Source of the DNA: a virus
Taxonomy: Duplodnaviria > Caudoviricetes
IMG/VR virus record: IMGVR_UViG_3300035227_000232
Coordinates: 25,414 to 89,413 of that record
Direction: 5' to 3' (one strand)
Length of the DNA stretch: 64,000 nt
Part shown: piece by piece, positions 45,924 through 63,999 of the stretch
Layout of the letters: every line of letters begins with the position of its first letter
Numbering within the stretch: position 1 is the stretch's first letter
Program-made: the position numbers and the translations under genes
The notes under the pieces: generated by a model
What the model was told of the DNA's origin: nothing
The model's input: only the letters and a program-made list of their open reading frames with translations
The model's database searches: none

Positions 45924-46639
45924 GTCAATTCACTACAATTCGTTTGCATGGTCAACTGGGAGAAACAGTCGGCAATGAGTGGGATTTACTGGTAAGCAGT
46001 GTCGCTGAAGCAGTCAACGCAATAGAAACTCTCTCTAAGAGAAAACTATTCAAATACCTTCTAGAAGAAGAAAAAAAGAACATTAGATACAAGGTATATA
46101 TAAATGAAAAAGAAGTAGAATTTGATGATGATTATGAAGATATCGAAAAGATAGCGAAGACTGAAGTATGTATGGAATTTGATGACCTCCAGTCTATCGA
46201 CATCGTCCCCGTAATCGAAGGAGCGGATGATGGTCTCTTGAATATCATTATGGGAGCAGCACTTATTCTAGCTGTGTTCACCGTTTTCGCTGGAGCAGCT
46301 TTTGCTGTAAAGGCTGCAATATTTGCTGCGGGAGCAGCCCTTCTGTCATCTGGAATTATGGCGATGTTAGCAAAACCGCCTACTCTAGACCCTCCTAAGA
46401 ATATAGAACTGAAAGGTGCAACTTCTTATTTGTTTCAAGGGACAATAAACACGAACAAAGAAGGCAACCCAGTCCCTATCGTTTACGGGAGATTGCCAGT
46501 TGGTTCCTATGTCTTAGAATCGAACTATGAATCATATAACGTCATTGCATACGACAGCCCGAGCGATACTGAGCAAATTTCCACGATCCATACAGAACTT
46601 GCTGTATTGCGTGAAGCCTACGATATAATTCACACTTAG
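45920..46639 (+). CDS. Tail assembly protein, lambda gpI-like
   Basis: IRLHGQLG, AEAVNAI, IDIVPVIEGA, a hydrophobic Ala-rich stretch, and SYLF.G..NT..EG.PVPIVYG...VGS. Confidence 0.9.
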   Translation: MSQFTTIRLHGQLGETVGNEWDLLVSSVAEAVNAIETLSKRKLFKYLLEEEKKNIRYKVYINEKEVEFDDDYEDIEKIAKTEVCMEFDDLQSIDIVPVIEGADDGLLNIIMGAALILAVFTVFAGAAFAVKAAIFAAGAALLSSGIMAMLAKPPTLDPPKNIELKGATSYLFQGTINTNKEGNPVPIVYGRLPVGSYVLESNYESYNVIAYDSPSDTEQISTIHTELAVLREAYDIIHT

Positions 46640-46642
46640 ACG

Positions 46643-49600
46643 ATGATTTTAAAAAGACAAATATCCTCTGCTAAGCATCATTTATCGAGAGAGCTTATCC
46701 GTAGAGGAGAGAATTTCAAAGACTCCGAGTTCATTGAATCATTCGGATTACTTCACCCTGCCGAAGCAAGTATGTTCTTCGCTGAGGTTCCTGAGGAAGT
46801 TGACGAAGGTATCACTGGGCAGAAAGATTCAGAAGGCGTAGATATAGAGAGAGCCATATCTATAACAGAACTTCGATGTATTGACTTGCTCTGCGAAGGA
46901 GAAGTGGAAGGACTCGTTACTTCAGAATATGTAGGGAGCGGGACGTCGGGGAATATTGGATATGATACAGTAAAAGAAAAAGTCTTTGCGGAGATCGGGA
47001 TAAAAGGAGAAGTGCTAGGGTCTGGCTTAAAATGGCTAAAATCTATCAAATGGAACGACGTTCCATTAATAAATGGATTAAACAAATTAAATTATCAACA
47101 AATCGATCTAACATTTTCGCCCGGAACTAATATAGGTGGCGTGTCAGACGGGCTTAGCACCCCATTAACAGTCAACAGGCCAGTTGGGGAAAGGCTCCGT
47201 GGCGGTGGGGATACTGGGGATGAATTTGCGAAAGTATATAGAATCGAAAACTCAAGATGCAAAGGTATCGGTGCTACTGTTAAAGTAAATCAATTAATGT
47301 ACACAGAAAAAGTAAACACTGATGATTATGGTGACATCAGAGATACTAGCGTAACGTACTACATATATTACCGCCCAATATGGAATATAGAAAATAAGGC
47401 TGAAGAAAACTATGTGTTAGGAGCATCTGAAACCGTGACAGGTAGAGCTTCTACGCCATATCTAAAGCAGTCAAACATCACCTTCGGGAACGTACCTAAT
47501 ATTAGCGAGGAGGGACACGTCGGTTGGGAGATAAAATTCGTTCGAGAAACAGCAGAGTCTCTTGATACTGGCCTCAGGAATCAAACTTTCGTCGATAGTT
47601 TCTTTGAGGTTTACGGAGATGTTTTTAAGTACCCCAATTCATGCTGTGTCCAAACAAGATTCAGTGCTGAATTCTTTTCGAGTATCCCTGATAGGAAATT
47701 TGACCTGAGGGGAACGCTGGTTAATATCCCCGCTGACTATAATCCCATTACCAAAAAATACGGTCAGACCTACGAAGGTATAGCGAATCCTTATTGGAAA
47801 GGGAACTTCAAGAACGAGAGAGTCTGGACTGATAATCCAGCTTGGTGCTTTTATGACATATTGACAAATAAAAGGTATGGCCTAGGCAAATACATAGAGT
47901 CACATTTTATAGATAAATGGACACTCTATGAGATCGCAAAATATTGCGACACAATGGTCCCGGATGGATATGGCGGACAGGAACCACGATTCACTTGTGA
48001 CATGGCGATACAGAGCAGGGATGAGGCTTATAAAGTCGTAAACGATATGGCTAGCATTTTTCGCGCTGTAACATATTTTTCTGGAGGGACTATCCATGCG
48101 AGTCAAGACTCCGAAAAAGATACGCTAGCAGTGTTTACAAACGCTAGCGTAGAAAACGGAAACTTTACCTATTCATCAAGCGCGAGAAAAGCCAGACACA
48201 CTGTAGCAATCGTCAAGTACAAGGATAAAAGAAATAATTACGAAAACGCTGTAGAGTATATAGAAGACGTAGATGGCATACGCAAATTCGGAATTAGAGA
48301 AATCGAAATGGCTGGGGTTGGAGTTACTTCCCGTGGTCAAGCACATAGATATGGTAAATGGGCTCTTTTGAGCGAACAATCGAACGTAGATACCGTAAAT
48401 TTTAGCACTGGTATAGAAGGTTCTACTCTGAGGCCGGGAGACATTATAGGGATATCTGACTCTAATAAATATACGAAAAGATATGGAGGAAGAACTATAT
48501 CGATACAACCGACTATGATTTCGTACCACGACTATGTAGTAGGTGGGACAGAAATAAAGTTCGATCAAAAATTAAACTTAACGCAGAATGGAACCTATAA
48601 GATCACCCTTCTGACGCCTACATATCAATATGACACCTCATTAGTAGATCAATCTACTGGAGCAGTAGATGATGTTGGGACCATCGACTCTCGTGATTAC
48701 TCAGATATTAGAAGATCACATCTCCAATCGTTCGAATTCGTAGAATCTGAGGTAAGTACTGGTTCAGATGGATTTAGCGTACTCACCAAGTACGAGGGTG
48801 GGCTTCTCAATACCACTGATTACGAAATACCTGATCATATGGTCTGGATGATCGAACCTACCGGGAGCACAGCATCGCTTCAAGGGGAGGCCAGCAAAAA
48901 GATAAAAGATTTTAAAGTCCTAAATATCTCAGAAAAAGAGCCTAATATATATAGCGTTTATGCATTAGAATATTTGAGGAGTAAATTCGCTGCAATTGAC
49001 GGAACAGCAGATTTCGATGATGATATAACATCCCCCCCCACTAATCCTCCCGCTGCTGTCCTTCTTTCTCTAGAGTTAATCTCCTCTAATACGAAAAAAA
49101 TAAAATACCAAATAATACCAGCTACTGATCAATCGAACGTCCTTTCTTATCTGGTTTATATTAAGTTCGGGTCCGATTGGAATGAATCGGATTTTGATTC
49201 TGAATACGGTGTCCCATCGAACCCCCCTCCTCCGACCGGAACTCCAATTGACCGTTACCTTGTGGGCTCTCATCCGAGAGATGATCTTGACGGAGAATAT
49301 ATTCCTCAAGAAAATGGTAAATATTATGTCAGGGTTTATTCTGGAAACAGAATAGGATCGCCGTCTACGTATGGGACAAACGCTGAAGACACTGAAGGAA
49401 ATTTCTACATCGAAGTTGCTGGAATTAATCCGATTCTCGATACAATGATCCATGCGTTAACTATAACAGGCGAAGATTTTTCAGCAGGAGATGCAACTGA
49501 TCTTGCTGGAACCAGAATAGAAGTTCAGCATGATTTAGCTGAACCTGTTTTCGTTTGGAAGGTCTCGATAAACGGCGAATCTCCAGCCGTTATATACGAC

Positions 49601-51091
49601 TATAAGATTACAATCAGAGAGCCTTCCAATAGTAATATACCCTCTTCGACAGTCCTTTACACTACCACATTAGAGGATAGACTCCCGCAGCAATTGTCTT
49701 GGGAATTCGAGCTACAGACTCATATTCGAGAATTGTCAACGTTAAGTAGGGACTATGACGTGACGGTAGAAGCGATAGATAGAAGCGGAGCAAGTTCTGC
49801 TGGTACATTCACACCCGGAGCTGGATACAGCAACACCAACGGGTATGATATCGTTAATGTGAAAAATCCAGACATAGGATATATACCACTTACCGAATAT
49901 GATTCCGTATCGGAGTGCGAAGATTCTGATGCTGTCTGGTGTTCTGATCAGTGGCTAACTCCTGATGGGGACGTTAAACTCCTATTCGGAAGAGGTCCAA
50001 ATTCTTTGAATGCTGCTATGGGGGTTTTATGGATATCTGCTGTTGAATCTGCAATAACTAATGCGACAGACGCCCAACTTCTGAGCGATTCTTACCTTAA
50101 TGCAAACTCTATACGGAGAGTAGACTTTTACAATAACAGTAATAATCCGATGGGTGTAGATATTTCCATGGTGAACTTCACTGATGATACGACAGCGTAT
50201 ATAAGTGTCGCGTTTGGAGATGGAGTAGATAAAGTATTGCTCGCTGAATCTTTAAATAGAGGGAGACCGGATATACATCCTGCTATAGGTCTAGTCAAAC
50301 ATCGATCCAACGTGGTGAAGGTAGTCTCTAGAGGTGATTTCGTAGCTAATTACGGAACTGGATTCTTCAGAAAATACATCTCTGGTTTTTGGGAAGGAGG
50401 CGTCGGCGGAGGAATCAAGATAACTCATAATTACGGAATAAATGCTATATATAGTACCGCCAAATATCCCCACAGGGATCACAATACAGAACCTAATGCT
50501 TACGAACCGAGAATGGATGGGAGGCATCCCACTACGCAGTTGGATGGGGGGAAGACTCATCAAACGGATTACATGTTTCTGAAAACTCCTTATGGAGTCA
50601 AATCCTCTTATTACAGTGGCCATCGGGCTACCTATCGAAAAACTGCACATTACGCTCACTGTTATCTGGTGACTTACGTATTTCAGTTTGACAGAGCAAT
50701 GCCGAATAACGAATACCACGTTGTTTTCATACCCGGATTGACCACATACGGAGATAACCTTGATAGGTCTCTATTTACAGAGATAGTAGAAGTAAAGGTA
50801 GGGGGGCTTTCGGCTGGTAACATTAAGCCAACAGAACTTACTGATGGACAAACTGGTGTGGGGACTTGGTCCTCAACTCGCGGTGCAGGGCAATATAGCA
50901 GTTTTCCAGTTGGAATGTATACTCGCCATTACCAACATGGTTATGTACCTTATTCAGGAGACATGAAGGGCAGAAAGGCTGTCATCTATAAGGCCCCAGA
51001 AGGTTTCGCTATAAAGATACAAACTAGCGATTATAACACGGGAAATTTCACTAACAGACCAATTTATATTGGTATCGTATCAGCGACTTAA
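46643..51091 (+). CDS. Central tail-tip/host-specificity protein, lambda gpJ-like
   Basis: IDLLCEGEVEGL, WTDNPAWCFYDILTNKRYGLG, LYEIAKYCD..VPDG.GG.EPRFTC, FTYSSS and GVTSRGQAHR.GKW. Confidence 0.95.
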   Translation: MILKRQISSAKHHLSRELIRRGENFKDSEFIESFGLLHPAEASMFFAEVPEEVDEGITGQKDSEGVDIERAISITELRCIDLLCEGEVEGLVTSEYVGSGTSGNIGYDTVKEKVFAEIGIKGEVLGSGLKWLKSIKWNDVPLINGLNKLNYQQIDLTFSPGTNIGGVSDGLSTPLTVNRPVGERLRGGGDTGDEFAKVYRIENSRCKGIGATVKVNQLMYTEKVNTDDYGDIRDTSVTYYIYYRPIWNIENKAEENYVLGASETVTGRASTPYLKQSNITFGNVPNISEEGHVGWEIKFVRETAESLDTGLRNQTFVDSFFEVYGDVFKYPNSCCVQTRFSAEFFSSIPDRKFDLRGTLVNIPADYNPITKKYGQTYEGIANPYWKGNFKNERVWTDNPAWCFYDILTNKRYGLGKYIESHFIDKWTLYEIAKYCDTMVPDGYGGQEPRFTCDMAIQSRDEAYKVVNDMASIFRAVTYFSGGTIHASQDSEKDTLAVFTNASVENGNFTYSSSARKARHTVAIVKYKDKRNNYENAVEYIEDVDGIRKFGIREIEMAGVGVTSRGQAHRYGKWALLSEQSNVDTVNFSTGIEGSTLRPGDIIGISDSNKYTKRYGGRTISIQPTMISYHDYVVGGTEIKFDQKLNLTQNGTYKITLLTPTYQYDTSLVDQSTGAVDDVGTIDSRDYSDIRRSHLQSFEFVESEVSTGSDGFSVLTKYEGGLLNTTDYEIPDHMVWMIEPTGSTASLQGEASKKIKDFKVLNISEKEPNIYSVYALEYLRSKFAAIDGTADFDDDITSPPTNPPAAVLLSLELISSNTKKIKYQIIPATDQSNVLSYLVYIKFGSDWNESDFDSEYGVPSNPPPPTGTPIDRYLVGSHPRDDLDGEYIPQENGKYYVRVYSGNRIGSPSTYGTNAEDTEGNFYIEVAGINPILDTMIHALTITGEDFSAGDATDLAGTRIEVQHDLAEPVFVWKVSINGESPAVIYDYKITIREPSNSNIPSSTVLYTTTLEDRLPQQLSWEFELQTHIRELSTLSRDYDVTVEAIDRSGASSAGTFTPGAGYSNTNGYDIVNVKNPDIGYIPLTEYDSVSECEDSDAVWCSDQWLTPDGDVKLLFGRGPNSLNAAMGVLWISAVESAITNATDAQLLSDSYLNANSIRRVDFYNNSNNPMGVDISMVNFTDDTTAYISVAFGDGVDKVLLAESLNRGRPDIHPAIGLVKHRSNVVKVVSRGDFVANYGTGFFRKYISGFWEGGVGGGIKITHNYGINAIYSTAKYPHRDHNTEPNAYEPRMDGRHPTTQLDGGKTHQTDYMFLKTPYGVKSSYYSGHRATYRKTAHYAHCYLVTYVFQFDRAMPNNEYHVVFIPGLTTYGDNLDRSLFTEIVEVKVGGLSAGNIKPTELTDGQTGVGTWSSTRGAGQYSSFPVGMYTRHYQHGYVPYSGDMKGRKAVIYKAPEGFAIKIQTSDYNTGNFTNRPIYIGIVSAT

Positions 51092-51093
51092 AA

Positions 51094-51864
51094 ATGGATA
51101 AAGTTTCTACAGTCTTTGTGCTTGGTGATGGGGATATGTTTTCTCTAAATAGTGCAGATGATGATGTTCTGAAAGAGAGCCTCAAATTCGAACTTCAAAT
51201 GAGGGAAAAAGACGAAGACGCCGTCATCAAGGCAATAAAAATGACAGCCAAGGAACATTCTACATTCTCTTGGGAATTAGATGAGAAACTAGAGCCAATA
51301 TACAAAGCATCCAATGAGACAGGTATTTCCGAAACGGTAGAAACCCCAATAGAAAGAATGAATTCCGTGGTATCTGAGATAAATGGAGCTAAAGAAGGAT
51401 TTTTCTCAATACTAGACATTGCCTTTCAAAAAGCCTTAGAAGAAGAAGACCCTCAATTACTAAGCAAAAAGAAAAAATCTGTCGTTGAAAAAAAACATTT
51501 TATAAGGAACTTACCTAAGACACTCGATGAGTGGCTTGGCATGTATAGTGAAAATAAGTTTCTCACCTTCGATTCTAGTACACCATACGGAAACATTTTT
51601 GATATAGAGATAACTAACAGGGGCTCGGGGTATCGTTCTGCTCCACATATAACAATCACCTCTCCTGAAAGTGAGAACGGGGAGGTAGCAAAAGCTCAAG
51701 CCTCGGTTCTCGATGGCGAGATCGACATAATTTCTATGATAAACTACGGTCAAGGGTACGTAGAAGTTCCCAATTTAACGATCTCCCCTCCTGAAGATGC
51801 AGATGGAGTCATAGCAGAAGCGAAAGTAACATCAATAACTAACCCAATCCAATTCGATATTTAA
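51094..51864 (+). CDS. Tail-associated protein with GSGY-type beta repeats
   Basis: IEITNRGSGYRSAPHITI and ISMINYGQGYVEVPNLTI. Confidence 0.65.
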   Translation: MDKVSTVFVLGDGDMFSLNSADDDVLKESLKFELQMREKDEDAVIKAIKMTAKEHSTFSWELDEKLEPIYKASNETGISETVETPIERMNSVVSEINGAKEGFFSILDIAFQKALEEEDPQLLSKKKKSVVEKKHFIRNLPKTLDEWLGMYSENKFLTFDSSTPYGNIFDIEITNRGSGYRSAPHITITSPESENGEVAKAQASVLDGEIDIISMINYGQGYVEVPNLTISPPEDADGVIAEAKVTSITNPIQFDI

Positions 51865-51878
51865 AACTAAGGAAAGTC

Positions 51879-52796
51879 ATGGCGAAAAACATAAATTATC
51901 TAGCTTCAATTCAAAAAGGATCAAGTAGGGTCGTAGGCGAATCCCAGAATGATTGGAAAACCATTAGACCCGGAAGCCTCTTAAGATTTAGAGAAGATTC
52001 AGTCCCTTACACTGTGTCTACCTCAAACGAATTCTTCTATATAAAGGACTTCGAAACGGAAGATGGGCTGAGCCTTGAAGTCGGGGAAGACGTTGGTATT
52101 AACCTAATGACTAACGATATCCTAACAATCACCTACAAGGAGTATAAGGCTATAAATGTATCCAATATAGTTGAAGCAGGGGAAGGTCACGCCGAAGGAG
52201 ACGAGCTGGTATGTCAAAGCGGAGAATTGTCTGTTGAGCCAAACAGCAATTTATCTTTACCTACAAGACTAAGAATAGACGAAGTATCTGAAGCAGGAGC
52301 TATTAAATCCGTAACTATTCTTGAACCGGGGAAATATCTCATATGTCCAGAAGAATCCATTTTTTACGGAGGAAAAGGAAATAAGGCCAAGATAGCTCTT
52401 ATCATTGAATTGGTAAACGAAAGGCTAACATCCGAAAGAGAAATATCCAAAACCTCTTTCAGTAACGGGAAATCGCATATTAAACTCAATTACAAACTCC
52501 CAGTTGGAGTCAAGAAAGGGAAGCTCTCTGTAAAAAAACGAGAACTTCTCCTCAACGCTCCTTATACGAATGACTCTAAAACCGAAAAAATCTGCAACAT
52601 AACGAGGGACTTCACTGAACACTCTAACTTCCCTGTCGTATCTCCTAGCAGCCAATCAGCGTTAATGAATCTCGAAGTGGCATACAATGACTTGGTCGTA
52701 AAACTCGACAAACAGATTTTTGAACTTGAAGACGAGATAAAAGAACTTAAGTATCAGGTAGGAAGGCTCGAGAAAGGAATGACTAACGAGAGTTAG
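51879..52796 (+). CDS. Tail-associated protein with degenerate GSGY-type repeats and a C-terminal coiled coil
   Basis: IVEAGEGHAEGD, VTILEPGKY and LDKQIFELEDEIKELKYQVGRLE. Confidence 0.6.
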   Translation: MAKNINYLASIQKGSSRVVGESQNDWKTIRPGSLLRFREDSVPYTVSTSNEFFYIKDFETEDGLSLEVGEDVGINLMTNDILTITYKEYKAINVSNIVEAGEGHAEGDELVCQSGELSVEPNSNLSLPTRLRIDEVSEAGAIKSVTILEPGKYLICPEESIFYGGKGNKAKIALIIELVNERLTSEREISKTSFSNGKSHIKLNYKLPVGVKKGKLSVKKRELLLNAPYTNDSKTEKICNITRDFTEHSNFPVVSPSSQSALMNLEVAYNDLVVKLDKQIFELEDEIKELKYQVGRLEKGMTNES

Positions 52797-55700
52797 CCTT
52801 GTCATCTAATAGACCGCCCGGACGCTTCTGCTCTGTGATCACTTTCAAAATCTCCATTTCCATCATTTGGCCCAACGCCTTGTTCTTGTCTTTATCCTTG
52901 CGGTCTTGATCTTTCTCGTCCCCGTCACCTTTACCCCCGCTCCCCTCTTGGCTGTCATTTTCACTTCTGCCACTTACTTCGCCATTCTTGTCTATGTTGA
53001 CAGTAATACTAATATTGTTAGCGATTTCTCTAGTTCCCTTACTCCCTCCAGAACTAGACCTATTCGGGGAGTCTTCTCCTGAGTCCTGCTCTATAGAATC
53101 CCTAACCCCATCGACAGAGTCGATTAGTTTTACTAAATTTTGGTTAACTACATCGAATGAATTTGATCCTCCTCCTGAATCTCCACCTGTTGACAAACTC
53201 GGCAATCCAGCCCCCACATAACCGCCTTCGGCGTATCCTTTCATATTGCCTAAGTTACTTAAATCCATGAAGCCTTGTATATCTCCTCTATTGAGACGGT
53301 CCAAAGCGTCGGCTCCAAGGTAACTAGTCGATTTCGGGCTGAATATAAACTCTCCTTTAGATACCCTTGCTAATATATTATCTAATCCGAAGTTTCTCAT
53401 ACCCCCACCGTTAGAGTACATTCCTGAATCTTTAACCATCCCTAAACCACCCATAAGAGAACTTGTTCCATCAACAGTCATAGCATTAGAACCTGTATCC
53501 ATCGTTTCCGAAGAGGAAAATGATCTGCTCATTTCCTGAAATTGTCCCGTAGGATTACTAACGATTCCTCCTAACGCTCTTCTAACTAAGCCACCTCGTG
53601 CTTGACGTCTAAAAGGATTCGTAAACAAGTCCATCCCCGGATTGCCCCAGAAATCAGCCCCGAATGGAGCCTTAGCACCTTTCCATAATGCCCCCGGAGT
53701 GTCCTTGATTCCTTTGCCAATCTTGGATGCACCGCCCCTCAAGCCTTCCCAAAAACCCTTCGCCTTCGTTGCCTGACGATTTGGGTTTCTGAATGCGGGG
53801 TTCAAATCATGAAGCTCCGATTCGATTTTGCTCAACCTAGCCCTATCCTTATAAACATTCTTAAATTCTTGTGGTACATTTTGGGCTCCCCACATATGCA
53901 GTTCATCAGGGGCTCCTGTAGTGTTGAGACCTTGCCTCTCTTTCTGTAATGCTAGCTGTTTCTGAAAACTCGGCTTAGCCATCATTTCAGACAAGTCCTT
54001 TTCAAATTCCAAAGCCTTTTTCGCGTCATCTTCCTTTTGCCACTTGCCCAAGAGCCCAGCACCGAGTCCGCTTATACCACCCGCTATTGCACCTTTCGTA
54101 CCGCCGAAAGCTCCACCAATCCCTGCGCTTACAAGCGTTTTTCCTCCGGTAGAATTAAGGAATTTACCTATAGCATTTGTATCTCCCCATTGGGCTGCAC
54201 CCGCACTAACGAGACTCATAGCAGCAGACATCCATCCAGACTTAATCATCTGCTTCTTCTTCTCTCTGAATGCCTTCATCTTCTCTGCATTTGCTTTTTC
54301 CCTTTCGTATTCGCTTTTGCGATGACTATAAAAAGCCTCTTCTCTCTCAAAACGTTCCTTGTTCTGCGGGTTACTTTGGTTCTCTTGTCCGAGAATTGAA
54401 AACATCGGGTCTATGTTTTTAATCATTTTCTCCGGCTGCTCAGGATTATCAAAATCAATTTGATTCCTTAAGACAGCAGATATCCCGCCCCCTCTCGAGT
54501 ATCCCTTTAATGAGTTGAGCTTTTCTAAATTGTCATATCCAATTCTCTTGGCTGAATCTGCCCGTATTACATATTCTCCTCCTGAACCGAACATCGGGAC
54601 ATCATCAGACCTTGGCCCAGTTCCTCCCGTAACTCTACCTCCGTTCGCATAACCCTTGACCAATCCGCCACTGGCGTGTCTCTGCCCCATCAAGTAAGAC
54701 ATAAAATTCTCTGATGAGAAGTCCAGCATTCTGGAAAAGATATTACTCGTAATATCCATAGCCAAATCCCTGAAAGCTTCTTTAGATGACTTGGTTCCGA
54801 ATGCAAATTCTTTGAATGCTTTTTTAAACCCATCTCTCATTCCAATAGCCGTAGAATCGATTAGGTCCTTAAGGTCCTGCATGTCATCTTTAGCATTCCT
54901 TATAAAATGAGAAGTAAATTGACCACCCATGTCACCCATTCCATAAGTTCCATCATTTACCTTCCCTTGATAATACTGTTTATTACCAGCGCGAGCAGTA
55001 CGACCGGATATCTCTCCTTTTGCAAGCTTCATGTCCAGAGCTACTTTCTTCATCTCGTTTGCCATTGCTGACATAGTAGCATTAACAGAGAGCCCATTCT
55101 TCGCTGCTTCTTTCGCCACCCGCGCAAATCTTTGCTGCACCTTAGTCCTGAATTCCGTAGCTGTTTTAAGGTTCTGCATTACATTGAAAGAACGATCCAT
55201 AGACCCTGCATATTTATCGTACTCTTGAGAAAGTTTACCCATATCAAGAGTGCCTTTAAACTTAGGCTGATCCAAATATTCGGCCATCTTATGAGGAGCT
55301 AGCTTATTTCCAAATTCATCTGTAAGCATTTCGTCCTTATTGAGGCCAGAAGCCGACGCTCTTTTATTCCACTGCGTATCATAGTCGGTCTCCAACTTCT
55401 TAAGAGCCTCGGGGGTCTGCGTCTTTAGGAAGGTCTCGTGCATATCACGCTGTTGCTGGAGTTTTAGTTTGTCATGCTTAAGTTTTTTTAATTCTTCACT
55501 GTCTTCTGGTCGTCCAGTTACGTATTCTTCGGTTTCTAATCTTGCTATAGTCTTGTCTAAAGAACCGATTGTTTTTTTGATCCCCTCTACCTTTTTCTGT
55601 ACTTCGGGCCGATCTTTTATGTTCTGTTTCATCTCATAGGAGTCCATTGCTATGTCTCCCGTAGCTTGGCCACCTATACCCCAATATCCTGCTCTTCTTC

Positions 55701-58700
55701 CCGCAGCGTCAACGTTCCTTTTCTCAGTCATTCCCGATCCATCGTCCAATCGCCTGAAGAATATTTCTCCCCTCATCATCTGAGCAGCTTCTTTTCTTTC
55801 TTGATCCACCATCGCTTTTTTCTTCTCGGGGGATAACGGGACGTACTTGCCGGAATCATGCTGAACAAGCTCTCTCTTTATTATTGATTGCAAACCGTGA
55901 TCCTTTTGGGCGGAGGTCATTGTCAGTCCTTCTCCCTTCATGAAATCGGACAGATCAAGACCTGACGCCTCAAATTTATCAGCTAACCCATGGGATACAG
56001 CCTTATTCATTTGATTCGTATAGTCACCAATCATAGGCTGTTGACTTCGTTGATTAATGAATGAATCACCCAGACTAGTCATGCCCTTCCACTGACTATT
56101 CTCTAATCGATAATTTTCTATCTCTCTCCTAGTGGGTTTTCCGAATCCTTCCGTTCCCCATTTGTCCTGCAATGCATCTTTTGCTTCATCTTGGGAAGGT
56201 CGCTCGTATCTTCCGTAGATATCGCCAAGAAGATTTCTCATCCCCTCCTTTCTTCGGGTTCGAGCTTCTTTGACTCTTTTAGAGTAATCTGTTACTTCCC
56301 CCGGACGGGCACGTTCTGTCGCAATGCCCAACTGTAAATGACCCTTCCTCTGCTGAATCAGTGCTTGCTCTGTCAGTAATTTTCTTTGCTGCAAGTCTAA
56401 TGGTCCGGTCATTGCCGAATTGCCCCCAGCAGCAATCCTTTTTACCCTTATCCCCTCTAATTCTTTACCAATCTTTTCTAACCTTTCCGAAAACTCACGG
56501 TACTTTTTCTCCATCTTACTAAGGCTCGTGGGAAGCTCACCTAACGAATCTTCTATGGGTTTGACCCAAGAGGGCTGTGTCGGTACGACTTGATTCGCTG
56601 GATCAAGTTTTTTGGGAACTGCTTTTGATGCTTGGGTAAGCCATAGAGTTTTAAACTCCGATAGACTCAAGTTCATTTTAGCAGCAGCCCTTACAATACT
56701 CTGCAAATCAGTAGCTTTGTTTCCTTCTTGAGTTGCCCATTTTGTTTGGCCCGCCGTCTGCCACTTGGTCTGCTGAACCCTTAGCTCTGCAATAACATCC
56801 TCAGCACCAGTATTGGTATTCTTGGCTATAGCATCTTCTAAAGCTTTCAGAGCATTTCCGGGTCGCAGCTTGTAGGTATCTGAGGGGTAAGCCTTGTCCT
56901 CTAGTCCCTTTACGAATGCATCCACGCCATCCTTAAAATCCTTTATCACTTTAGGCGTTATTTGTTCAGTTTGCCAAGGGGTCTTTCCTTCACCGCCATA
57001 GCCCATAGTGCTCCTCTGCCTAGCATTGGTGGGGGACATGAAGTAGCCTGTAGGTAAGTCCGTTGCGGGAGCATACGACCCTCGAGCTTGGCGTTGAGTC
57101 CAAGGGTTAGTATTACTGTCAGGATATTGGTTGGCGTAGCCACCTTGTGCAGAGTAAAGCACATCACCTGAATTCAATGCCTCCAAGAAAGCCCTATTTT
57201 TCTTCGTGGTCTTTGCGTTTACAATAAATTCTCCGGGGGTAAGCATAGCTGGAACGACGTCTGTTCCTCTTGCTGTTAAACCCATCGACTCGAGAATACC
57301 TCCGCTGTGTCGTACTACGGGAGGAGTAATTGGGGCGGTATTCGGATATGTAGTTTGTACTGGTCCCAAGCCGACAGTTCTCGGCAGCATTCTTTGCCCA
57401 TATTGATTTGCGAAATCATTGATGCTTTGGATAAGGTTCGTTTCCGCTGTCATTCTATCCGCGTTTATAGTCCTTAAATCACTAACGGACTGATTATATT
57501 CATCGACAAGTCCTTGGTATCCGCCAGAAGTAAACATCTCATTAACAAAAGCATCTATAGTCTCAGCACCATGCATAATTCTACCCATGAACGCTCCCTC
57601 TTCCACAGAACTCAGGGCCAAATCTTCGAAATCTTCTCCACTGTCAATATATTTGTCCTTCTGTTTCGCAGCAAATTTTTGCATCGCATCTTGAACATTC
57701 ATGCCCTTGTAAGGCATGTCGGTCTTGCCGTCTGTTGTTACTGAGTAGTTACTTAACCACTCCTCTATCTCACTTAGACGTTCCGCATATAATTCTTGGA
57801 TGTCGGTCATTGATGTCGGCACGCCACCCACACTTGCTGCTTGCGCGTCAACTACTCGCGCTCCTCCTAATGTGCTCGTTACAAATTCTTGCTGAGTCTT
57901 TCCTGAGCCAGCGCGTCCACTATGAGGTGCGCCCATCGCTAGGTTCCTGAAAGCAGACATCATTGAATTGCTTTCCTGAAGAAGCTTTAATCTAGATGAA
58001 TCTGCTTTAGTTGATTGAGCCTGAGTATCCACTTGAAAGTCTAAAACTTTCTTTTGGTCCACTTGCATGGTAAACAACTTGGCTTGCTGCTCAATAAGGG
58101 ATAGGATTGTCCCCCTCCCGCCTCCTGTAATATTAGTTGCTCCTGTACCGAAAACATTTTCTGTAGCCGTCCGAAATTGCGTTTGCATCTTGTCCATCGT
58201 AGTCACATTCTCGGATACGATAGTCTCTTGAAGTTTCAAAATTTGCGACCTTACCTCCTCTAACTTTGCGGGGACAGCATCTTTCAATGAAGCTTGAACT
58301 TGATTCGTCGCAGCCTCGATTGTCCCTTCGCTGCCCATATCCTTCATCCATCCGGGTAACTCAGTCCCCGTCTGTATCTCATATTCTCGGGCTGTCTGAG
58401 CCATCTGACTGGCTCTTCCAGCGATTGCATCACCCATTAAATTTTTCGGAATATTTTCAGCCCCAAAGAAATTCTTAAACATATCCGCACCTTTAAATGA
58501 TGCTATACCTTCTGATATCGTTGGACTGATGCTTCTCGGTGCTCTCTGAGTTTCTGCCGTTAAGCTATCGATAGCCAGAAGACCAGAGTGTGTTCCCTTC
58601 GTATATGACTGAATTCCACCTTGGTAACTTAACGTTTTTTGGATTCTTATTAATTCTTGAGCATATTGACCCTGAAGTTCATTAAGTTTAAGTTGTTGGC

Positions 58701-61700
58701 CTAATTGTTCATTGGCCTTCAACAATGAAGCATTGCTGCCCTCACTCGACACTCTTATAGCCTCAAGAAGATTCTGCAAAACTGTGTTATCTCCGGTGAT
58801 CGCGCTGAGGCCCGAACCCGGAGTATTGAGTTTATTTTGCACGAATTTCAGTAAGTCATCCGTACTAGTACCTTGCTTCATCTGATCGCCAACCATATCT
58901 ACTAACCTAGCTAAAGCATTTGCCTGTGGTCTAGTCTGTCCCGCTTTGGTCAAATAACTTTCCAGTTTACTTCTGTCTCCCCGAACCGCTGACTGAAAAG
59001 CTTTACTCATATTAGTAGAAGACTTTCCAAATTCGCTGGCTATGTTTTTCAACAAATCTTTTCTAATTCCACGATCAATAGACTCAAGAACCCCTGTATG
59101 CCGACCTAAAATCTGCGATACCTTTATCGAATCCTCTAATCGTTGGCTTGATTCCGGTCCAAGAAATGGCTTAAGCAAATCTGCCCCAAGATTCATCTCT
59201 GTCATCGCGAAGTTCCTCTTCCCCGCTGACCTCAGTCCCCTAACATCTTCAGCAGTACCAGATGATCTTGTTAACGCATTTACCGCATTCCCAGTCTTCA
59301 TATATACTGACTGCATAACGTCTTCCATGCGTTGTAACGCTTCTCTTGCTCTATCCGCAGCATCTTTCTGACTATTAATACTTCGGGTTAACAATTTTGT
59401 CATCTCCGCATCAAGGATAAGAGCCTGTACCTTTTCTTGGTATGCGCTTGCTATATATTGAGCATCCGCGAGAGTAGAATTTTTTATAGCAGTTACATCA
59501 CCGCCGAGTTTGCCAAATATATCCATGATACCCTTTTGGGTATACCCTGCCATGCCTGTGGTTGAATCGAAGACACTGTCCATGTCTTTCATCAGTTGGG
59601 TAAGTTCCGCTGTTGATTTTCCGCCCAAGTCTAAAGTCTGAACATATTTACCTGTAAATTGATCAAGCTTCTCCATCCCCTCTACGGTCCTCATCAGAGG
59701 ATTAGACCAATCGGAAGTTTCTGCATACCACGGGTCATCCGCCGACTTGCCTGTTGCTCGGGCAGCTTGTCGAGCTGCATCTCTATGCGAGTCCTGCTTA
59801 CTATCACCTCCCGTAATTGCTCGCGACCAATTCGAAGATTCAAAGAACGACGTACCCCAGAATCCGCCTCTTCTTTCGTCTTGCATCTTACCCATAGAAG
59901 CAGCAAGAGATTTAGATTCAGCATCGGCAGCTAATCTCAACTGCTCCTTGCTCATGACCGCATTCATTCTCTTGGGGTCATTCATAGTCGCAATTATTTT
60001 GCCTCGCGCTGAATCAGGGATATTACCCATAGCAGTCATCATTACATCCCTTCTATCTTTAAGGTCTTGGGGTGTAAGTCTTCCTGTCTTATCCCGAAGT
60101 GCATCTGAATAATCTCCTAATGCTCTCATGAATCCGCTCGTTCCATTCTGAAAATCTTTAAGTGCTGCTGAAGCTAATTCTGATGAAGCAGCTAACTCAG
60201 GTAAGACCTTCATGTACGCATCAGCCCCGGCGGTCAAAGCCATTAACCCCCCTGCTGTCAAACCTACAGCAGCACCAATAGCTGCACCCGCTGGGCCTCC
60301 GCCTCCCATGCCCCACGCTGCGCCCGTGTACATCGAGCCCATCATTGCGCCTATCCCAGTATAACCAGCAGCAGTGCCCCACGCTTGTGTCTCGGCTTTC
60401 TTGGCCCTTTCATGTTTAGACGTTCCGGGCATTCCGGCAGCAAACATCCCACCGATCATTGGGCCCATGAATGCCAGTGGAAGACCCATCTTCTGCATCA
60501 TCGCACCACCGCGATGAAACCTCTCAGCACCCTTACTCTTATAAGCCTTACCTGTCTGCGGATTGATTATTTGGCCGTGGCTCGCTAGCTTTGATTTTGA
60601 ATCTCTGACCTCCGCTGCGGATTTCGTGGTCGCCGTTCTTGCTTTGTCATATGCTGCTGCTGCTGCTGCTGTAGATGCGTTTAATTTTGCAAGTTCGCGT
60701 TCTAGGACAGCTACATTTGATCCCGGTCTCGGAGCTGTTGGATCAGCACCAAACCCTAAGGGCTTCGCCTTGGCAACTTTTTCAGCAGCCAAGTTAGAAG
60801 TTGCCTGAGCGTGCCGTGCTTGCTCATTCCTGTAAGCTATTCTGGTTGTTCTCGTGTTTTGCCTAGCTTCTTTAAGTTTATTTTGTTCATCCAACAGGGT
60901 GTTCTGGAGCAACTTCTTGGAAGCTGTCTCAGCATTCTCCCCCATCCCCATGAAAGCGAATGCAAGCATTCCGATGCCCATTCCACCACCAGCAGCATCT
61001 GTTCCCTCAAAGAAGTTCGGGACATGACCTTTCGCATTACTAGCTGCCCCTTGTAGCCCCATTCCTGTACGGCCTAAAGTTGAACGAGGTTGACCAGCGG
61101 ATAGATGTTGATTGATTGCATTAGAAAGACTTCCTTGGTTATCAGTATAAACTCCAACTCCTACTCTCGCATCATAACCTATCTTAGGAGTACCTCCTCT
61201 TCCCGACATCTGAATACCGAGTTTTTCTCCTCTGATCGATCTCTCTAATGGGTCTTTAGAGAAACTAGGAATAAATCCATCGGACGCCCTAGCATAATGG
61301 GCTTGCCAACCGGGTATACTCCCTTGTGACATATAACCCTCAATCGATTTCTTCCCTGCTCCGCGTGCAGCGAGATTCATGTATCTGTCATATCGCCCTA
61401 TTTTCTCATTGTTCGATAATTTTTTTGAAGCACCTAACCATTCTGCGATTTTGACTTTGGACTGCTTTGGTATTCCTAAGAATCCTTTCAAGTCTAAACC
61501 ACGAAATCCGTGGTCTGGATTTGTCCACATGTTCTCTCTTCGGGGAACGCTTTCAGCCAACTGTTTTCTAATCCTACCTCCTTGACCACCGCCAAACTTC
61601 ATATACTGGGAGAACATTTGGCCCATCCCAAAATTAGGAACATGTCCTCCTGATACAAATTGTACTCCAGTTTTTTGACTACCTAGGCCAAGAAAGTCTG

Positions 61701-63999
61701 CCATCTTATAGTTGCCCTCTGCTCTTTTAAGGTATTCACTTATTGCAACAGGGTCTCTTCCTGCTGAACCCGGCCCATGTTGCTTAAGATACTTCGTAAA
61801 ATTTGCGGTGGAAATTATTGGTTGTAATCCTCCTGCATCTAAAATTTGAACAAGACCCTTGTCTACCATTGATTTAGCTGATGCTCCCTCTAGGAAAGCT
61901 TTCTCGAACTTTTCTACATCTCGGACAGAGTAATTATCCGCCTTCATCAAATCGTTTGCTAAGAATTTAGAACTCTTACCCGTCAGCCCCTTTACAACCA
62001 TTGCTTCGCTCAATTCGCCTATGAATTTGCTATCAAGCATACCCATTTCACTTAAAGAAGTTTTATGAAGTGGGGTTACCATTTTTCTAACTATCCCCGC
62101 TGCTGGAGCATGGCCGACCAAAGGCTCAACTGGTACACCTGATTTTTTGGCAGCTTTTATTACCTGAGCTTCAAAAGCGAGTGTATCCAAGCGCATCGCC
62201 ATCAGCGGATCATTTTTTGCTATGTTATTATAAGTTCCTTGAGTCCCTTGTCTTAATCCCTTCAAGACATCCGCTGCACTCATCTCTATGGGCGATTTCA
62301 TGACCAATGCAGTTTTTGCTAAGGCTTTACTTTTTGGAAAAGGCGATTTTGATGGCGTTCTCATTGCTTCCCGTATGGCCTCATTATCCCATTTTACGCC
62401 AGCTTTCCCCGCAACATTTTGAGAAGTCAATGATTTCCAATCGAGCTTCGGTGTTGCCCACGCTGTTCCTTCTGCACCTCCACCTATGCGTGTTAAATCT
62501 TTAGCCTTCGCTGTCTTAGCCCACATCGACAAAGCTGCCATGTTAAAGTTCGGAACAAATCCATCGAATCTGTTTTCCATTGCTTTCGTCAGCCCCGGAG
62601 ATGTTTTCATTTCTCCCCATTTTCTTCCAGAAGCTGCAAGGACGTTATCCAACGCTAACTTTTTATCGGTTGCTAATAATCCTTTAAATTGATGTTGATG
62701 AGGGATGAAGCTAGCGTAATCATCAGATAATTTTGTAAAGTCTAAATCTTTGCTTCCTCTTTGTTTTTGTATATACTTAAGCCACTCTACTTGGTTTTTG
62801 TTTCTCCACCCCCAGTCTGCCAGATACTGTTGAGTGGGTGCTCCCGTTCCAAATTCTTTTTTATGCGCTGCTTTTGTTGCAGACATACGTTGAGCCATTG
62901 AACCCACCATGAAGTTAGGAACGAAGCCACCGGAATAATTCCGACCTCTTCTGAAATTAGCCATCTCTTCTTCCCAGTCCCTACGGCTAGATGGAGTTGG
63001 ATTCCTTTTCATTTTTGCCATAGATAGAGGGTCAGCACCCTGATTGTATCTCCTTGATGCCCCCGGCCCAATGCCCCCATGACCCCTCAATTGACCAACA
63101 CCCATACCCTCTTTATCAAAAAGTGGTCTGAACAGTTTCGCTGATCCAATTACAGCATCTTGTGTCAATGTTGGTTTTGATCCCATTCCCCTGAACATTC
63201 GCAGATTAAGTTCTGGGTCCGCCTCCAGTTTTGCTATTTTGTTTTCTAAATAAGTCTGCTGCGCTCGGGCGTTCGGATTCTGCGTTAGTACACGTTTCTT
63301 CAGGAAATCGTATGCTTTAAGATCGTCCATCTTTTGCAATCTTCCTAATTCTGGCCCTTTGAAATCGAATCGCGTTTCTGCCCATTTCATGGGAAACGTG
63401 GGTAGACCCGCATCAGCGCGTAGAGAATTGAAACTCCCGCTAAAACCATCTTTGGTTTTCGAAGTTTTCAGGACTGGCCTTTGCCGTATAATCGAACCTA
63501 AATTCGGAACTGGCATCATGGCTTGGAGGTCTGAAATTTCGTCCGTCGCACGCTGCCTTCTTCTCAGTAGACCCTTCTCGTACTGGTATCTTTGTTTAGC
63601 TGGTAAATTATTAATATAATAAGCACTCCCCGGACCTTCCCAGTCTCTCTCCCATTTGTTAAATTTCCTAAATTTAATATCTTGAATAGGTTCACGACTC
63701 TGACGCCTCAAACTTTCCCGCGCATGTCTAGCTAGTACATTCGGCATCACCATGAAATTCGGAACAAAACCCTCAGCCAAAGTATATGGGTCTATACCTG
63801 TCTGAGACATTGCTTCTTTTCTATGAGATATCCCTGCTTCGGAATTTTTAGGAGGACTAATAAACGGTTGAGAGAACCCCGGAACTGAGGAAACTTTCTC
63901 TGCTGTATTATAAGTAACCTTACCCAACCCCGGCATGTCCATGCTCTTTATCTGTCCGGGTTTATATCCGCCTAAAGCAGCACCGACAGACTCAGCCAT
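52783..63999 (-). CDS. Tape measure protein, >=3738 aa, probably 5' truncated, with an internal cassette array
   Basis: Long helical/coiled-coil body, Gly/Ala/Met-rich membrane-like segments, three GG..D.VP....GE[FY][IV] motifs, and a C-terminus NISITVNI...EQKRPGGLL typical of lambdoid-type TMPs. The frame is open to the window edge. Confidence 0.9.
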   Translation of the reverse strand: MAESVGAALGGYKPGQIKSMDMPGLGKVTYNTAEKVSSVPGFSQPFISPPKNSEAGISHRKEAMSQTGIDPYTLAEGFVPNFMVMPNVLARHARESLRRQSREPIQDIKFRKFNKWERDWEGPGSAYYINNLPAKQRYQYEKGLLRRRQRATDEISDLQAMMPVPNLGSIIRQRPVLKTSKTKDGFSGSFNSLRADAGLPTFPMKWAETRFDFKGPELGRLQKMDDLKAYDFLKKRVLTQNPNARAQQTYLENKIAKLEADPELNLRMFRGMGSKPTLTQDAVIGSAKLFRPLFDKEGMGVGQLRGHGGIGPGASRRYNQGADPLSMAKMKRNPTPSSRRDWEEEMANFRRGRNYSGGFVPNFMVGSMAQRMSATKAAHKKEFGTGAPTQQYLADWGWRNKNQVEWLKYIQKQRGSKDLDFTKLSDDYASFIPHQHQFKGLLATDKKLALDNVLAASGRKWGEMKTSPGLTKAMENRFDGFVPNFNMAALSMWAKTAKAKDLTRIGGGAEGTAWATPKLDWKSLTSQNVAGKAGVKWDNEAIREAMRTPSKSPFPKSKALAKTALVMKSPIEMSAADVLKGLRQGTQGTYNNIAKNDPLMAMRLDTLAFEAQVIKAAKKSGVPVEPLVGHAPAAGIVRKMVTPLHKTSLSEMGMLDSKFIGELSEAMVVKGLTGKSSKFLANDLMKADNYSVRDVEKFEKAFLEGASAKSMVDKGLVQILDAGGLQPIISTANFTKYLKQHGPGSAGRDPVAISEYLKRAEGNYKMADFLGLGSQKTGVQFVSGGHVPNFGMGQMFSQYMKFGGGQGGRIRKQLAESVPRRENMWTNPDHGFRGLDLKGFLGIPKQSKVKIAEWLGASKKLSNNEKIGRYDRYMNLAARGAGKKSIEGYMSQGSIPGWQAHYARASDGFIPSFSKDPLERSIRGEKLGIQMSGRGGTPKIGYDARVGVGVYTDNQGSLSNAINQHLSAGQPRSTLGRTGMGLQGAASNAKGHVPNFFEGTDAAGGGMGIGMLAFAFMGMGENAETASKKLLQNTLLDEQNKLKEARQNTRTTRIAYRNEQARHAQATSNLAAEKVAKAKPLGFGADPTAPRPGSNVAVLERELAKLNASTAAAAAAYDKARTATTKSAAEVRDSKSKLASHGQIINPQTGKAYKSKGAERFHRGGAMMQKMGLPLAFMGPMIGGMFAAGMPGTSKHERAKKAETQAWGTAAGYTGIGAMMGSMYTGAAWGMGGGGPAGAAIGAAVGLTAGGLMALTAGADAYMKVLPELAASSELASAALKDFQNGTSGFMRALGDYSDALRDKTGRLTPQDLKDRRDVMMTAMGNIPDSARGKIIATMNDPKRMNAVMSKEQLRLAADAESKSLAASMGKMQDERRGGFWGTSFFESSNWSRAITGGDSKQDSHRDAARQAARATGKSADDPWYAETSDWSNPLMRTVEGMEKLDQFTGKYVQTLDLGGKSTAELTQLMKDMDSVFDSTTGMAGYTQKGIMDIFGKLGGDVTAIKNSTLADAQYIASAYQEKVQALILDAEMTKLLTRSINSQKDAADRAREALQRMEDVMQSVYMKTGNAVNALTRSSGTAEDVRGLRSAGKRNFAMTEMNLGADLLKPFLGPESSQRLEDSIKVSQILGRHTGVLESIDRGIRKDLLKNIASEFGKSSTNMSKAFQSAVRGDRSKLESYLTKAGQTRPQANALARLVDMVGDQMKQGTSTDDLLKFVQNKLNTPGSGLSAITGDNTVLQNLLEAIRVSSEGSNASLLKANEQLGQQLKLNELQGQYAQELIRIQKTLSYQGGIQSYTKGTHSGLLAIDSLTAETQRAPRSISPTISEGIASFKGADMFKNFFGAENIPKNLMGDAIAGRASQMAQTAREYEIQTGTELPGWMKDMGSEGTIEAATNQVQASLKDAVPAKLEEVRSQILKLQETIVSENVTTMDKMQTQFRTATENVFGTGATNITGGGRGTILSLIEQQAKLFTMQVDQKKVLDFQVDTQAQSTKADSSRLKLLQESNSMMSAFRNLAMGAPHSGRAGSGKTQQEFVTSTLGGARVVDAQAASVGGVPTSMTDIQELYAERLSEIEEWLSNYSVTTDGKTDMPYKGMNVQDAMQKFAAKQKDKYIDSGEDFEDLALSSVEEGAFMGRIMHGAETIDAFVNEMFTSGGYQGLVDEYNQSVSDLRTINADRMTAETNLIQSINDFANQYGQRMLPRTVGLGPVQTTYPNTAPITPPVVRHSGGILESMGLTARGTDVVPAMLTPGEFIVNAKTTKKNRAFLEALNSGDVLYSAQGGYANQYPDSNTNPWTQRQARGSYAPATDLPTGYFMSPTNARQRSTMGYGGEGKTPWQTEQITPKVIKDFKDGVDAFVKGLEDKAYPSDTYKLRPGNALKALEDAIAKNTNTGAEDVIAELRVQQTKWQTAGQTKWATQEGNKATDLQSIVRAAAKMNLSLSEFKTLWLTQASKAVPKKLDPANQVVPTQPSWVKPIEDSLGELPTSLSKMEKKYREFSERLEKIGKELEGIRVKRIAAGGNSAMTGPLDLQQRKLLTEQALIQQRKGHLQLGIATERARPGEVTDYSKRVKEARTRRKEGMRNLLGDIYGRYERPSQDEAKDALQDKWGTEGFGKPTRREIENYRLENSQWKGMTSLGDSFINQRSQQPMIGDYTNQMNKAVSHGLADKFEASGLDLSDFMKGEGLTMTSAQKDHGLQSIIKRELVQHDSGKYVPLSPEKKKAMVDQERKEAAQMMRGEIFFRRLDDGSGMTEKRNVDAAGRRAGYWGIGGQATGDIAMDSYEMKQNIKDRPEVQKKVEGIKKTIGSLDKTIARLETEEYVTGRPEDSEELKKLKHDKLKLQQQRDMHETFLKTQTPEALKKLETDYDTQWNKRASASGLNKDEMLTDEFGNKLAPHKMAEYLDQPKFKGTLDMGKLSQEYDKYAGSMDRSFNVMQNLKTATEFRTKVQQRFARVAKEAAKNGLSVNATMSAMANEMKKVALDMKLAKGEISGRTARAGNKQYYQGKVNDGTYGMGDMGGQFTSHFIRNAKDDMQDLKDLIDSTAIGMRDGFKKAFKEFAFGTKSSKEAFRDLAMDITSNIFSRMLDFSSENFMSYLMGQRHASGGLVKGYANGGRVTGGTGPRSDDVPMFGSGGEYVIRADSAKRIGYDNLEKLNSLKGYSRGGGISAVLRNQIDFDNPEQPEKMIKNIDPMFSILGQENQSNPQNKERFEREEAFYSHRKSEYEREKANAEKMKAFREKKKQMIKSGWMSAAMSLVSAGAAQWGDTNAIGKFLNSTGGKTLVSAGIGGAFGGTKGAIAGGISGLGAGLLGKWQKEDDAKKALEFEKDLSEMMAKPSFQKQLALQKERQGLNTTGAPDELHMWGAQNVPQEFKNVYKDRARLSKIESELHDLNPAFRNPNRQATKAKGFWEGLRGGASKIGKGIKDTPGALWKGAKAPFGADFWGNPGMDLFTNPFRRQARGGLVRRALGGIVSNPTGQFQEMSRSFSSSETMDTGSNAMTVDGTSSLMGGLGMVKDSGMYSNGGGMRNFGLDNILARVSKGEFIFSPKSTSYLGADALDRLNRGDIQGFMDLSNLGNMKGYAEGGYVGAGLPSLSTGGDSGGGSNSFDVVNQNLVKLIDSVDGVRDSIEQDSGEDSPNRSSSGGSKGTREIANNISITVNIDKNGEVSGRSENDSQEGSGGKGDGDEKDQDRKDKDKNKALGQMMEMEILKVITEQKRPGGLLDDKANSR
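53284..57309 (-). repeat. Three dispersed copies of the TMP GG-x-D-x-(V/I)-x-GE motif
   Basis: HSGG..GTDVVPAMLTPGEFIV..LN (57167-57309), ASGG..SDDVPMFGSGGEYVI..LN (54514-54675) and NGGG..DNILARVSKGEFIF..LN (53284-53418). Confidence 0.8.
61012..63771 (-). repeat. Six G[FH][VI]P[NS]F motifs punctuating the TMP N-terminal region
   Basis: GFVPNF at 63754-63771, 62911-62928 and 62545-62562; GHVPNF at 61630-61647 and 61012-61029; GFIPSF at 61261-61278 (aa 77, 358, 480, 785, 908, 991). Confidence 0.9.

Follow-up and report, generated by a model that had tools for sequence, protein, structure and literature searches.

The 64,000-nucleotide stretch of viral DNA analysed here (Duplodnaviria; Caudoviricetes; positions 25,414 to 89,413 of the record IMGVR_UViG_3300035227_000232), which we refer to as the window, ends in a giant gene on the minus strand. 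From comparison of its sequence with its relatives, this is a 5'-truncated gene for a tape measure protein of the TP901 family, and the part of the protein that concerns us is a row of modules set apart by recurring copies of a short conserved peptide. The last base of the window is also the last base of the 89,413-bp IMG/VR contig, which is rated 56% complete, and the gene is for this reason cut at its 5' end. Judged against the closest relative, which lies in ENA contig L097, approximately 550 codons are missing, namely those for the PF10145 domain and the first motif, and the contig ends five codons past the place where that first motif is expected. The features of the gene are listed below in the order in which the protein is read; motif positions were taken from the minus-strand translation of 52786-63999, residues are given as amino acids (aa), and HMM stands for hidden Markov model.

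52783..63999, minus strand: giant tape measure protein gene, one uninterrupted frame with 3738 codons present
63772..63999, minus strand: module A, the F0 bookend, aa 1-76 (HMM of 83 F0 blocks, aa 2-73, E 9e-34)
63754..63771, minus strand: junction peptide 1, GFVPNF, aa 77-82 (translation; DNA homology to L097 ends at aa 82.3)
62929..63753, minus strand: module B, aa 83-357, 275 aa, net charge +22, orphan (phmmer found the close fragment P0085 only)
62911..62928, minus strand: junction peptide 2, GFVPNF, aa 358-363 (translation; DNA homology to L097 resumes at aa 356.7)
62563..62910, minus strand: module C, aa 364-479, 116 aa, orphan (module profiles, phmmer)
62545..62562, minus strand: junction peptide 3, GFVPNF, aa 480-485 (translation)
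61648..62544, minus strand: module D, aa 486-784, 299 aa, orphan (module profiles, phmmer)
61630..61647, minus strand: junction peptide 4, GHVPNF, aa 785-790 (translation)
61279..61629, minus strand: module E, aa 791-907, 117 aa, orphan (module profiles, phmmer)
61261..61278, minus strand: junction peptide 5, GFIPSF, aa 908-913 (translation)
61030..61260, minus strand: module F, the terminal bookend, aa 914-990 (HMM of 76 terminal blocks, aa 917-978, E 1.7e-9)
61012..61029, minus strand: junction peptide 6, the last, GHVPNF, aa 991-996, followed by the hydrophobic segments (translation)
60214..60996, minus strand: Gly-rich hydrophobic, membrane-like segments, aa ~1002-1020, 1171-1191 and 1235-1261 (hydropathy windows)
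53341..57261, minus strand: rod and C-terminal part with three copies of a second family motif and a conserved C-terminus (family consensus)

The whole open reading frame (ORF; 3738 aa) is without any Pfam or PHROG match, and its identity was established through its relatives. A word-seeded HMMER search with aa 1-1000 as the query found 84 giant proteins of 2147-5354 aa, 80 of which carry PF10145 (TP901-type tape measure); several are so named by their sources. The closest, P0001, is an ORF called in L097 and is 71% identical over aa 355-3738. Directly upstream of it in L097 lies a 547-aa piece with PF10145 and matches to PHROG tape measure families (E 4e-54). Read over three frames, L097 presents the N-terminal domain, then GHIPNF, five residues, the opening of the window ORF (MAESVGAALGGYKPG...) and GFVPNF, the PF10145 domain before GHIPNF being ~540 aa long; from this frame reading, only the PF10145 part and one motif are missing from the window gene. 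The tape measure gene of L097 (8055-10001) is broken into called pieces of 547, 47 and 3524 aa, probably through sequencing error in a low-coverage assembly (the contig name gives 3x). F0, the terminal block, the rod and the C-terminus are collinear with P0002-P0004 and with other carriers of PF10145; towards P0002-P0004 F0 is 60-64% identical and the rod only 30-40%, and window aa ~90-824 are without counterpart. The earlier note on this DNA had called the gene a tape measure gene, and the PF10145 domains and collinearity of the relatives bear this out. It had also expected the array to continue beyond the window; one more motif (GHIPNF) does lie there in L097, five residues upstream of the equivalent of aa 1, but the extension is a slight one.

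The six motifs stand at precisely the residues that had been given for them (aa 77, 358, 480, 785, 908 and 991), and the blocks between them measure exactly 275, 116, 299, 117 and 77 aa. The description of these blocks as mutually unrelated also holds, with pairwise local alignments reaching z values of at most 2.6 against 100 shuffles each and BLAST clustering in agreement, as does their description as Lys/Arg-rich: all are net basic (+22, +7, +14, +11 and +5, versus +28 for the remaining 2742 aa of the protein). The trait is general: all 144 of the 144 relatives compared have an array more basic than their rod. The pattern G[FH][VI]P[NS]F is absent from all other frames of the window and of the whole 89,413-bp contig, and its confinement to the tape measure gene excludes chance. 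The nearest relatives likewise lack Asn at junction peptide 5 and have Ser or Gly there.

The two outer modules can be recognised throughout the family. F0 carries the signature GGYKPG ... YN.AE ... QPFI.PP ... DPY, and the terminal module carries ER...G...IG.D.R.G.GVY...GSL..AI, in a region covered by most of the matches of the 84 relatives. The blocks between them, B-E, match none of 25 module-family profiles, and among 1.84 billion representative proteins phmmer, with aa 78-912 as the query, picked up just the close fragment P0085, at 74% identity, and a second, marginal match. The last ~70-85 aa of module E (from aa ~824-835) align with P0003 and P0004. Block D holds an insertion of 32-45 aa (window 62295-62427, aa ~525-568) that is found neither in L097 nor in P0085, and it is also within this block, between aa 521 and 565, that the DNA homology to L097 is interrupted; modules therefore change internally too, beyond their junctions.

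Since the 84 proteins had been selected on the motif region, a second set was drawn on the N-terminal domain alone; more than 564 IMG/VR stretches match that domain, and 80 loci were kept. A locus search with the 996-aa N-terminal part had found no match, its patterns having come from the orphan blocks. In the first set, 80 of the 84 giant proteins contain between 1 and 11 motif copies, and motifs are present in nearly all complete ORFs of the 80 loci of the second, where the commonest and also the median form has four, at about aa 540, 622, 890 and 965. Taken together, almost every complete relative has the peptide, in 2-11 copies. A logo of 324 distinct instances reads [AS]xG[FHY][VI]PNF[AS], with G and P at 100%, N at 93%, F at 91% and A or S at positions -2 and +1; conservation stops beyond these nine junction positions. 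The codons of the six window copies vary at most synonymous positions (GGT/GGC/GGA, TTT/TTC, CCG/CCT, AAT/AAC), and since the amino acids are nevertheless preserved, it is the peptide and not the DNA on which selection acts. Ser or Gly replaces Asn in some copies, which counts against an Asn-driven self-cleavage. The family appears in uncultured material only: the genome collections yielded aquatic metagenome-assembled genomes and nothing else, and tblastn of window aa 1-1300 and of the canonical array found no match among 50,697 GenBank phages.

Block clustering revealed a fixed frame in which the PF10145 part is followed by a motif, F0 (~78 aa), a motif, the variable modules, a motif, a terminal module of 57-81 aa, a motif, the hydrophobic segments and the rod. 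The Gly-rich hydrophobic segments, which open the long rod part, are also present in the family consensus. Within this frame the number of modules per array varies from 1 to 10, and in array alignments of relatives the starts and ends of indels coincide with the motif columns. When the ends of high-scoring segment pairs (HSPs) of at least 60% identity were collected inside arrays, 72.8% of the 1,860 internal ends lay no more than 5 aa from a motif edge, versus 7.8% after randomisation (200 randomisations, maximum 9.8%). There are 73 module orders among 157 proteins, tandem duplications occur, and 39 of 126 module families are found in more than one neighbour context. Families of 110-, 137- and 354-aa modules, and the middle module with its invariant G..FE ... 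D.K ... K, keep fixed lengths and invariant residues across distant phages.

The clearest single exchange is seen between the window and L097. Their DNA shows 88.7% identity as far as aa 82.3, where motif 1 has its last residue, and homology resumes, at 92.7% identity, from aa 356.7, which is one to two codons ahead of motif 2. In the interval the window has its 275-aa module and L097 an unrelated 98-aa module. The proposal that the motif is a conserved joint is thus upheld for the whole family: motifs are kept, and the inserts vary and are exchanged at them. The same pair of sequences (window 52783-63999 against L097:10001-20575) shows a mosaic of synonymous divergence (dS), which stays at 0.01-0.09 in blocks C, E and F and over aa 2801-3738 but reaches 0.7-1.3 over aa 997-2800; the mid rod has therefore been exchanged between otherwise close phages. 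The ratio of nonsynonymous to synonymous divergence (dN/dS) is 0.45-0.97 in the array and 0.25-0.46 in the mid rod, the value of ~0.97 for module C resting on few substitutions.

The placing of the motifs relative to folded domains was predicted on a relative with the canonical four-motif array (L005, 37-sequence alignment). AlphaFold modelled this array with a mean confidence score (pLDDT) of 70 as three folded units, with modules at 75-90: F0 (helix, four strands, helix), an alpha/beta module of ~250 aa, and the terminal module. All four canonical motifs lie in or overlap segments of pLDDT below 50, and the peptide is therefore a linker between independent modules in this relative. The suggestion of independent folds is in this way supported by the model, in which the canonical blocks are separate modules joined by flexible, motif-bearing linkers. 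For window aa 70-1005 the alignment held three sequences and the resulting pLDDT of 32.5 is uninformative; it was not read as evidence of disorder because the terminal block, which is folded in the deep alignment, also came out low.

Database and fold searches returned little. The canonical array model had no significant fold match (Foldseek against PDB, VIA-align, BFVD), and the 37 canonical arrays gave no Pfam match and nothing in a PDB sequence profile search. A Pfam scan of the window protein detected neither a protease domain nor a peptidase motif. A kinase-like nature of block D was considered and is unsupported, as no Pfam match and no phmmer relatives were obtained; its best ESM Atlas score, 0.79, is below the usable level and its AlphaFold pLDDT is mostly below 50. 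As an observation apart, the canonical middle module (L005:11885-12640), which most four-motif relatives keep, has invariant G..FE, D.K and K residues which, together with a majority-consensus DFD, stand in the order of a PD-(D/E)xK site. Its model is confident; the best Foldseek E value was 0.27, VIA-align Z did not exceed 3.8, no nuclease was among the matches and no usable ESM Atlas match was obtained. By module profiles this module is absent from the window protein.

We propose, with a probability of roughly 0.6, that a family-wide junction peptide fences a row of modules in the tape measure protein, that modules are exchanged at this peptide, and that it is read in trans by a conserved partner. 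Carried in flexible linkers, the peptide would mark off the modules that lie after the N-terminal PF10145 domain and before the hydrophobic segments opening the rod, with F0 and the terminal block as conserved bookends and B-E as basic modules specific to the lineage of the window. Over evolutionary time whole modules would be inserted, deleted, duplicated and replaced exactly at the junctions. Selection keeps the peptide rather than the DNA in every copy; from this, together with the invariance of the peptide, its position in flexible linkers flanking modules and the uniformly basic character of these modules, we infer that each junction may be read by one conserved partner during tail assembly or ejection. 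Such a partner might cut the junctions, as in a polyprotein, or the junction might be a docking site for a chaperone that keeps the adjacent module in a state fit for the tail tube. Any part that the modules might play inside the host would likewise be conjectural.

Several points weigh against this proposal. An accumulation of HSP ends may follow simply from the motif being a conserved anchor that separates blocks diverging at unequal rates, and the count was made on related sequences that are not independent. Recombination extends outside the motifs, dS against L097 being 0.01-0.27 in the array and C-terminus and 0.7-1.3 in the mid rod. The PF10145 domain lies outside the window and is supplied by the relatives, the linker position is modelled on a relative while the model of the window protein itself is uninformative, and a partner reading the junction peptide was not identified.

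The best of the alternatives, which we nevertheless regard as unlikely, is an injected-effector polyprotein in which the junctions are protease sites and the modules, once freed inside the tail, leave it before the DNA does and serve in the host as enzymes or as factors against its defences. Cut sites in viral polyproteins show this pattern of a short conserved peptide in linkers on either side of each module, and the fast, lineage-specific turnover of modules is as expected for host-facing parts. Three copies of folded modules of 260-1000 aa would also be hard to house in the usual tail lumen of ~4 nm. Cleavage of a tape measure protein has a precedent in pb2 of phage T5, which is cut after R1127, at one site near the C-terminus beside a metallopeptidase motif (PMC10038345). 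We checked the T5 sequence at this site; it reads SFVPR before the cut and AEGG after it, and has only F-V-P in common with G[FH][VI]PNF. Since the likeness comes to three residues in another part of the protein, the T5 site is a weak lead. Further counts against a polyprotein are that no module, in the window or in the canonical array, matches Pfam, PHROG, PDB by sequence, or PDB or BFVD by fold, that no protease domain was detected in the protein, that some copies have Ser or Gly instead of Asn, and that the rod would lose its PF10145 domain if the first junction were cut. The only free-standing protein of F0 size to emerge from a search was the frameshifted piece of L097. The effector domains that the earlier note had placed in the blocks therefore find no backing, as no enzyme or effector family or fold was matched here or in the canonical array. 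In its fullest form, in which every junction is cut at assembly or ejection and releases a set of basic and phage-specific proteins of rapid evolution, kept unfolded in the tail lumen until they precede the DNA into the cell, we consider the idea more doubtful still.

Less probable again is a passive spacer array, in which loosely constrained filler modules add length or bulk and the peptide is a structural hinge or turn for packing. Blocks B-E are without relatives, no module has an enzymatic signature, the module count ranges from 1 to 10 and dN/dS against L097 is higher in the array than in the mid rod, all of which would suit filler. But conservation of nine residues over hundreds of copies, in proteins less than 30% identical elsewhere, exceeds the needs of a hinge; module families retain their lengths and invariant residues across distant phages; the canonical modules are predicted to fold at pLDDT 75-90; and all arrays are basic.

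The two remaining explanations are very improbable. One is that the 18-nt stretch coding for the motif is a recombination site, used by a recombinase or by homologous recombination, the peptide itself having no role; the earlier note had listed a recombination joint among its options. The cassette breakpoints between the window and L097 do fall within one to two codons of motif edges, and breakpoints cluster at motifs family-wide, but the synonymous differences among the six copies, with the amino acids kept, indicate selection at the protein level, largely refute the explanation and led us to rule it out at the DNA level. The other, that Met residues after the motifs are start codons for separate module or downstream products, draws on the presence of Met within two residues of four of the six window motifs, as had been noticed earlier, and of three of the five in P0001, and on the swapped L097 module, upstream of the P0001 start, which also opens G-M-M-M; it was rejected as a family feature on a frequency of 7.7% among 686 family motifs against 4% expected, with Ala or Ser as the usual +1 residue, a window protein that is Met-rich overall (4.4%) and no ribosome-binding-like sequence before these Met codons. 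The Met residues at the window junctions are a peculiarity of this lineage and rare elsewhere in the family.

Other parts of the locus were also considered. The rod contains a second motif, GG...D.VPA.L..GE[FY]V...LN.G, whose GE[FY]V element lies at aa 2256, 3141 and 3549 (window 57223-57261, 54565-54579 and 53341-53355); the family consensus has two copies. The stretch right after the T5 pb2 cut site (AEGG...GEHGTEVV) loosely resembles this second motif. The neighbouring tail genes are:

43562..52796, plus strand: lambda-like tail-tip operon with M, L, K, I and J (PHROG matches)

This operon, in the order M-L-K-I-J, is convergent with the tape measure gene (together 43562-63999) and does not lie downstream of it on the same strand, and L097 is arranged likewise; the Pfam matches of the L097 operon are Phage_min_tail, Phage_tail_L, Prok-JAB and Phage-tail_3.

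In the relatives the tape measure gene is immediately preceded by two further genes (L097:6162-8017, L005:8205-9948), which encode an acidic protein of ~250 aa and a protein of ~335 aa. The pair is kept in about 70 loci and in L097, is 38-54% identical between distant members, and has no convincing Pfam or PHROG match, only a marginal one to a PHROG of unknown function (E 0.008). It may represent a new pair of tail assembly chaperones, and the two genes are the candidates that we considered for the partner under the docking option. A complex prediction of the two proteins with the motif-F0-motif segment scored 0.00, which is evidence neither way.

The junction peptide provides a simple sequence rule for locating the hypervariable and probably host-facing part of these tape measure proteins. 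To the family the window contributes a near-isogenic pair with a clean motif-to-motif replacement of a module, together with four orphan modules. The peptide also raises a clear biochemical question, namely which partner recognises it and whether cleavage takes place at that point. Should cutting and delivery be demonstrated, the array would offer a natural scaffold by which foreign proteins could be loaded into phage tails, and if the protein were a true polyprotein, hundreds of uncultured aquatic phages would possess a natural, reprogrammable protein-delivery system.

Among known systems the window protein most resembles the TP901-1 family (PF10145, PhageMin_Tail), in the N-terminal PF10145 of its relatives, its giant size, its hydrophobic segments and its location among tail genes; it departs from the usual layout of that family in being convergent with the tail-tip operon. 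The nearest cultured N-terminal domain, that of SPbeta YomI, is ~27% identical, and YomI differs in being without the junction peptide. Piuri and Hatfull reportedly described, in 2006, mycobacteriophage tape measure proteins with embedded motifs resembling peptidoglycan hydrolases. These are likewise extra, non-ruler modules inside a tape measure that differ between related phages, but they are recognisable and lack a shared delimiting peptide, whereas the window modules match nothing and are fenced by an invariant one. The polyvalent proteins of phages and conjugative elements, which Iyer et al. are said to have described in 2017, reportedly have recognisable enzymatic domains and often an embedded protease. 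They share with the window protein the plan of a giant polypeptide with many unrelated modules in variable order and are thought to travel with the DNA; in the window protein, in contrast, enzymatic domains and a protease were not detected.

T5 pb2 is comparable as a tape measure protein that is cut at a defined site separating a functional domain, with F-V-P common to site and motif; the window protein differs in having six or more motif sites, in its N-proximal third, and no peptidase motif. The Sle1-type reconfigurable effectors of actinobacterial contractile injection systems are related to tape measure proteins and similarly consist of a tape-measure-derived scaffold with exchangeable modules that is loaded in a tail-like tube (PMC13277306). 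They belong to a contractile injection system, not a phage, have one variable C-terminal domain and are not reported to have a repeated junction peptide. Extra tape measure domains, processing of tape measure proteins and modular effectors derived from tape measure proteins (PMC13277306) are thus already known. In the literature searched, including full text for six spellings of the hexapeptide, a shared junction peptide fencing swappable modules was not reported, and such an arrangement in a tape measure protein appears to be undescribed there. Tape measure proteins are usually viewed as helical rulers with an occasional enzyme domain; here a clade of hundreds of uncultured phages carries, within the ruler, a variable row of folded basic modules set off by nine-residue fences.

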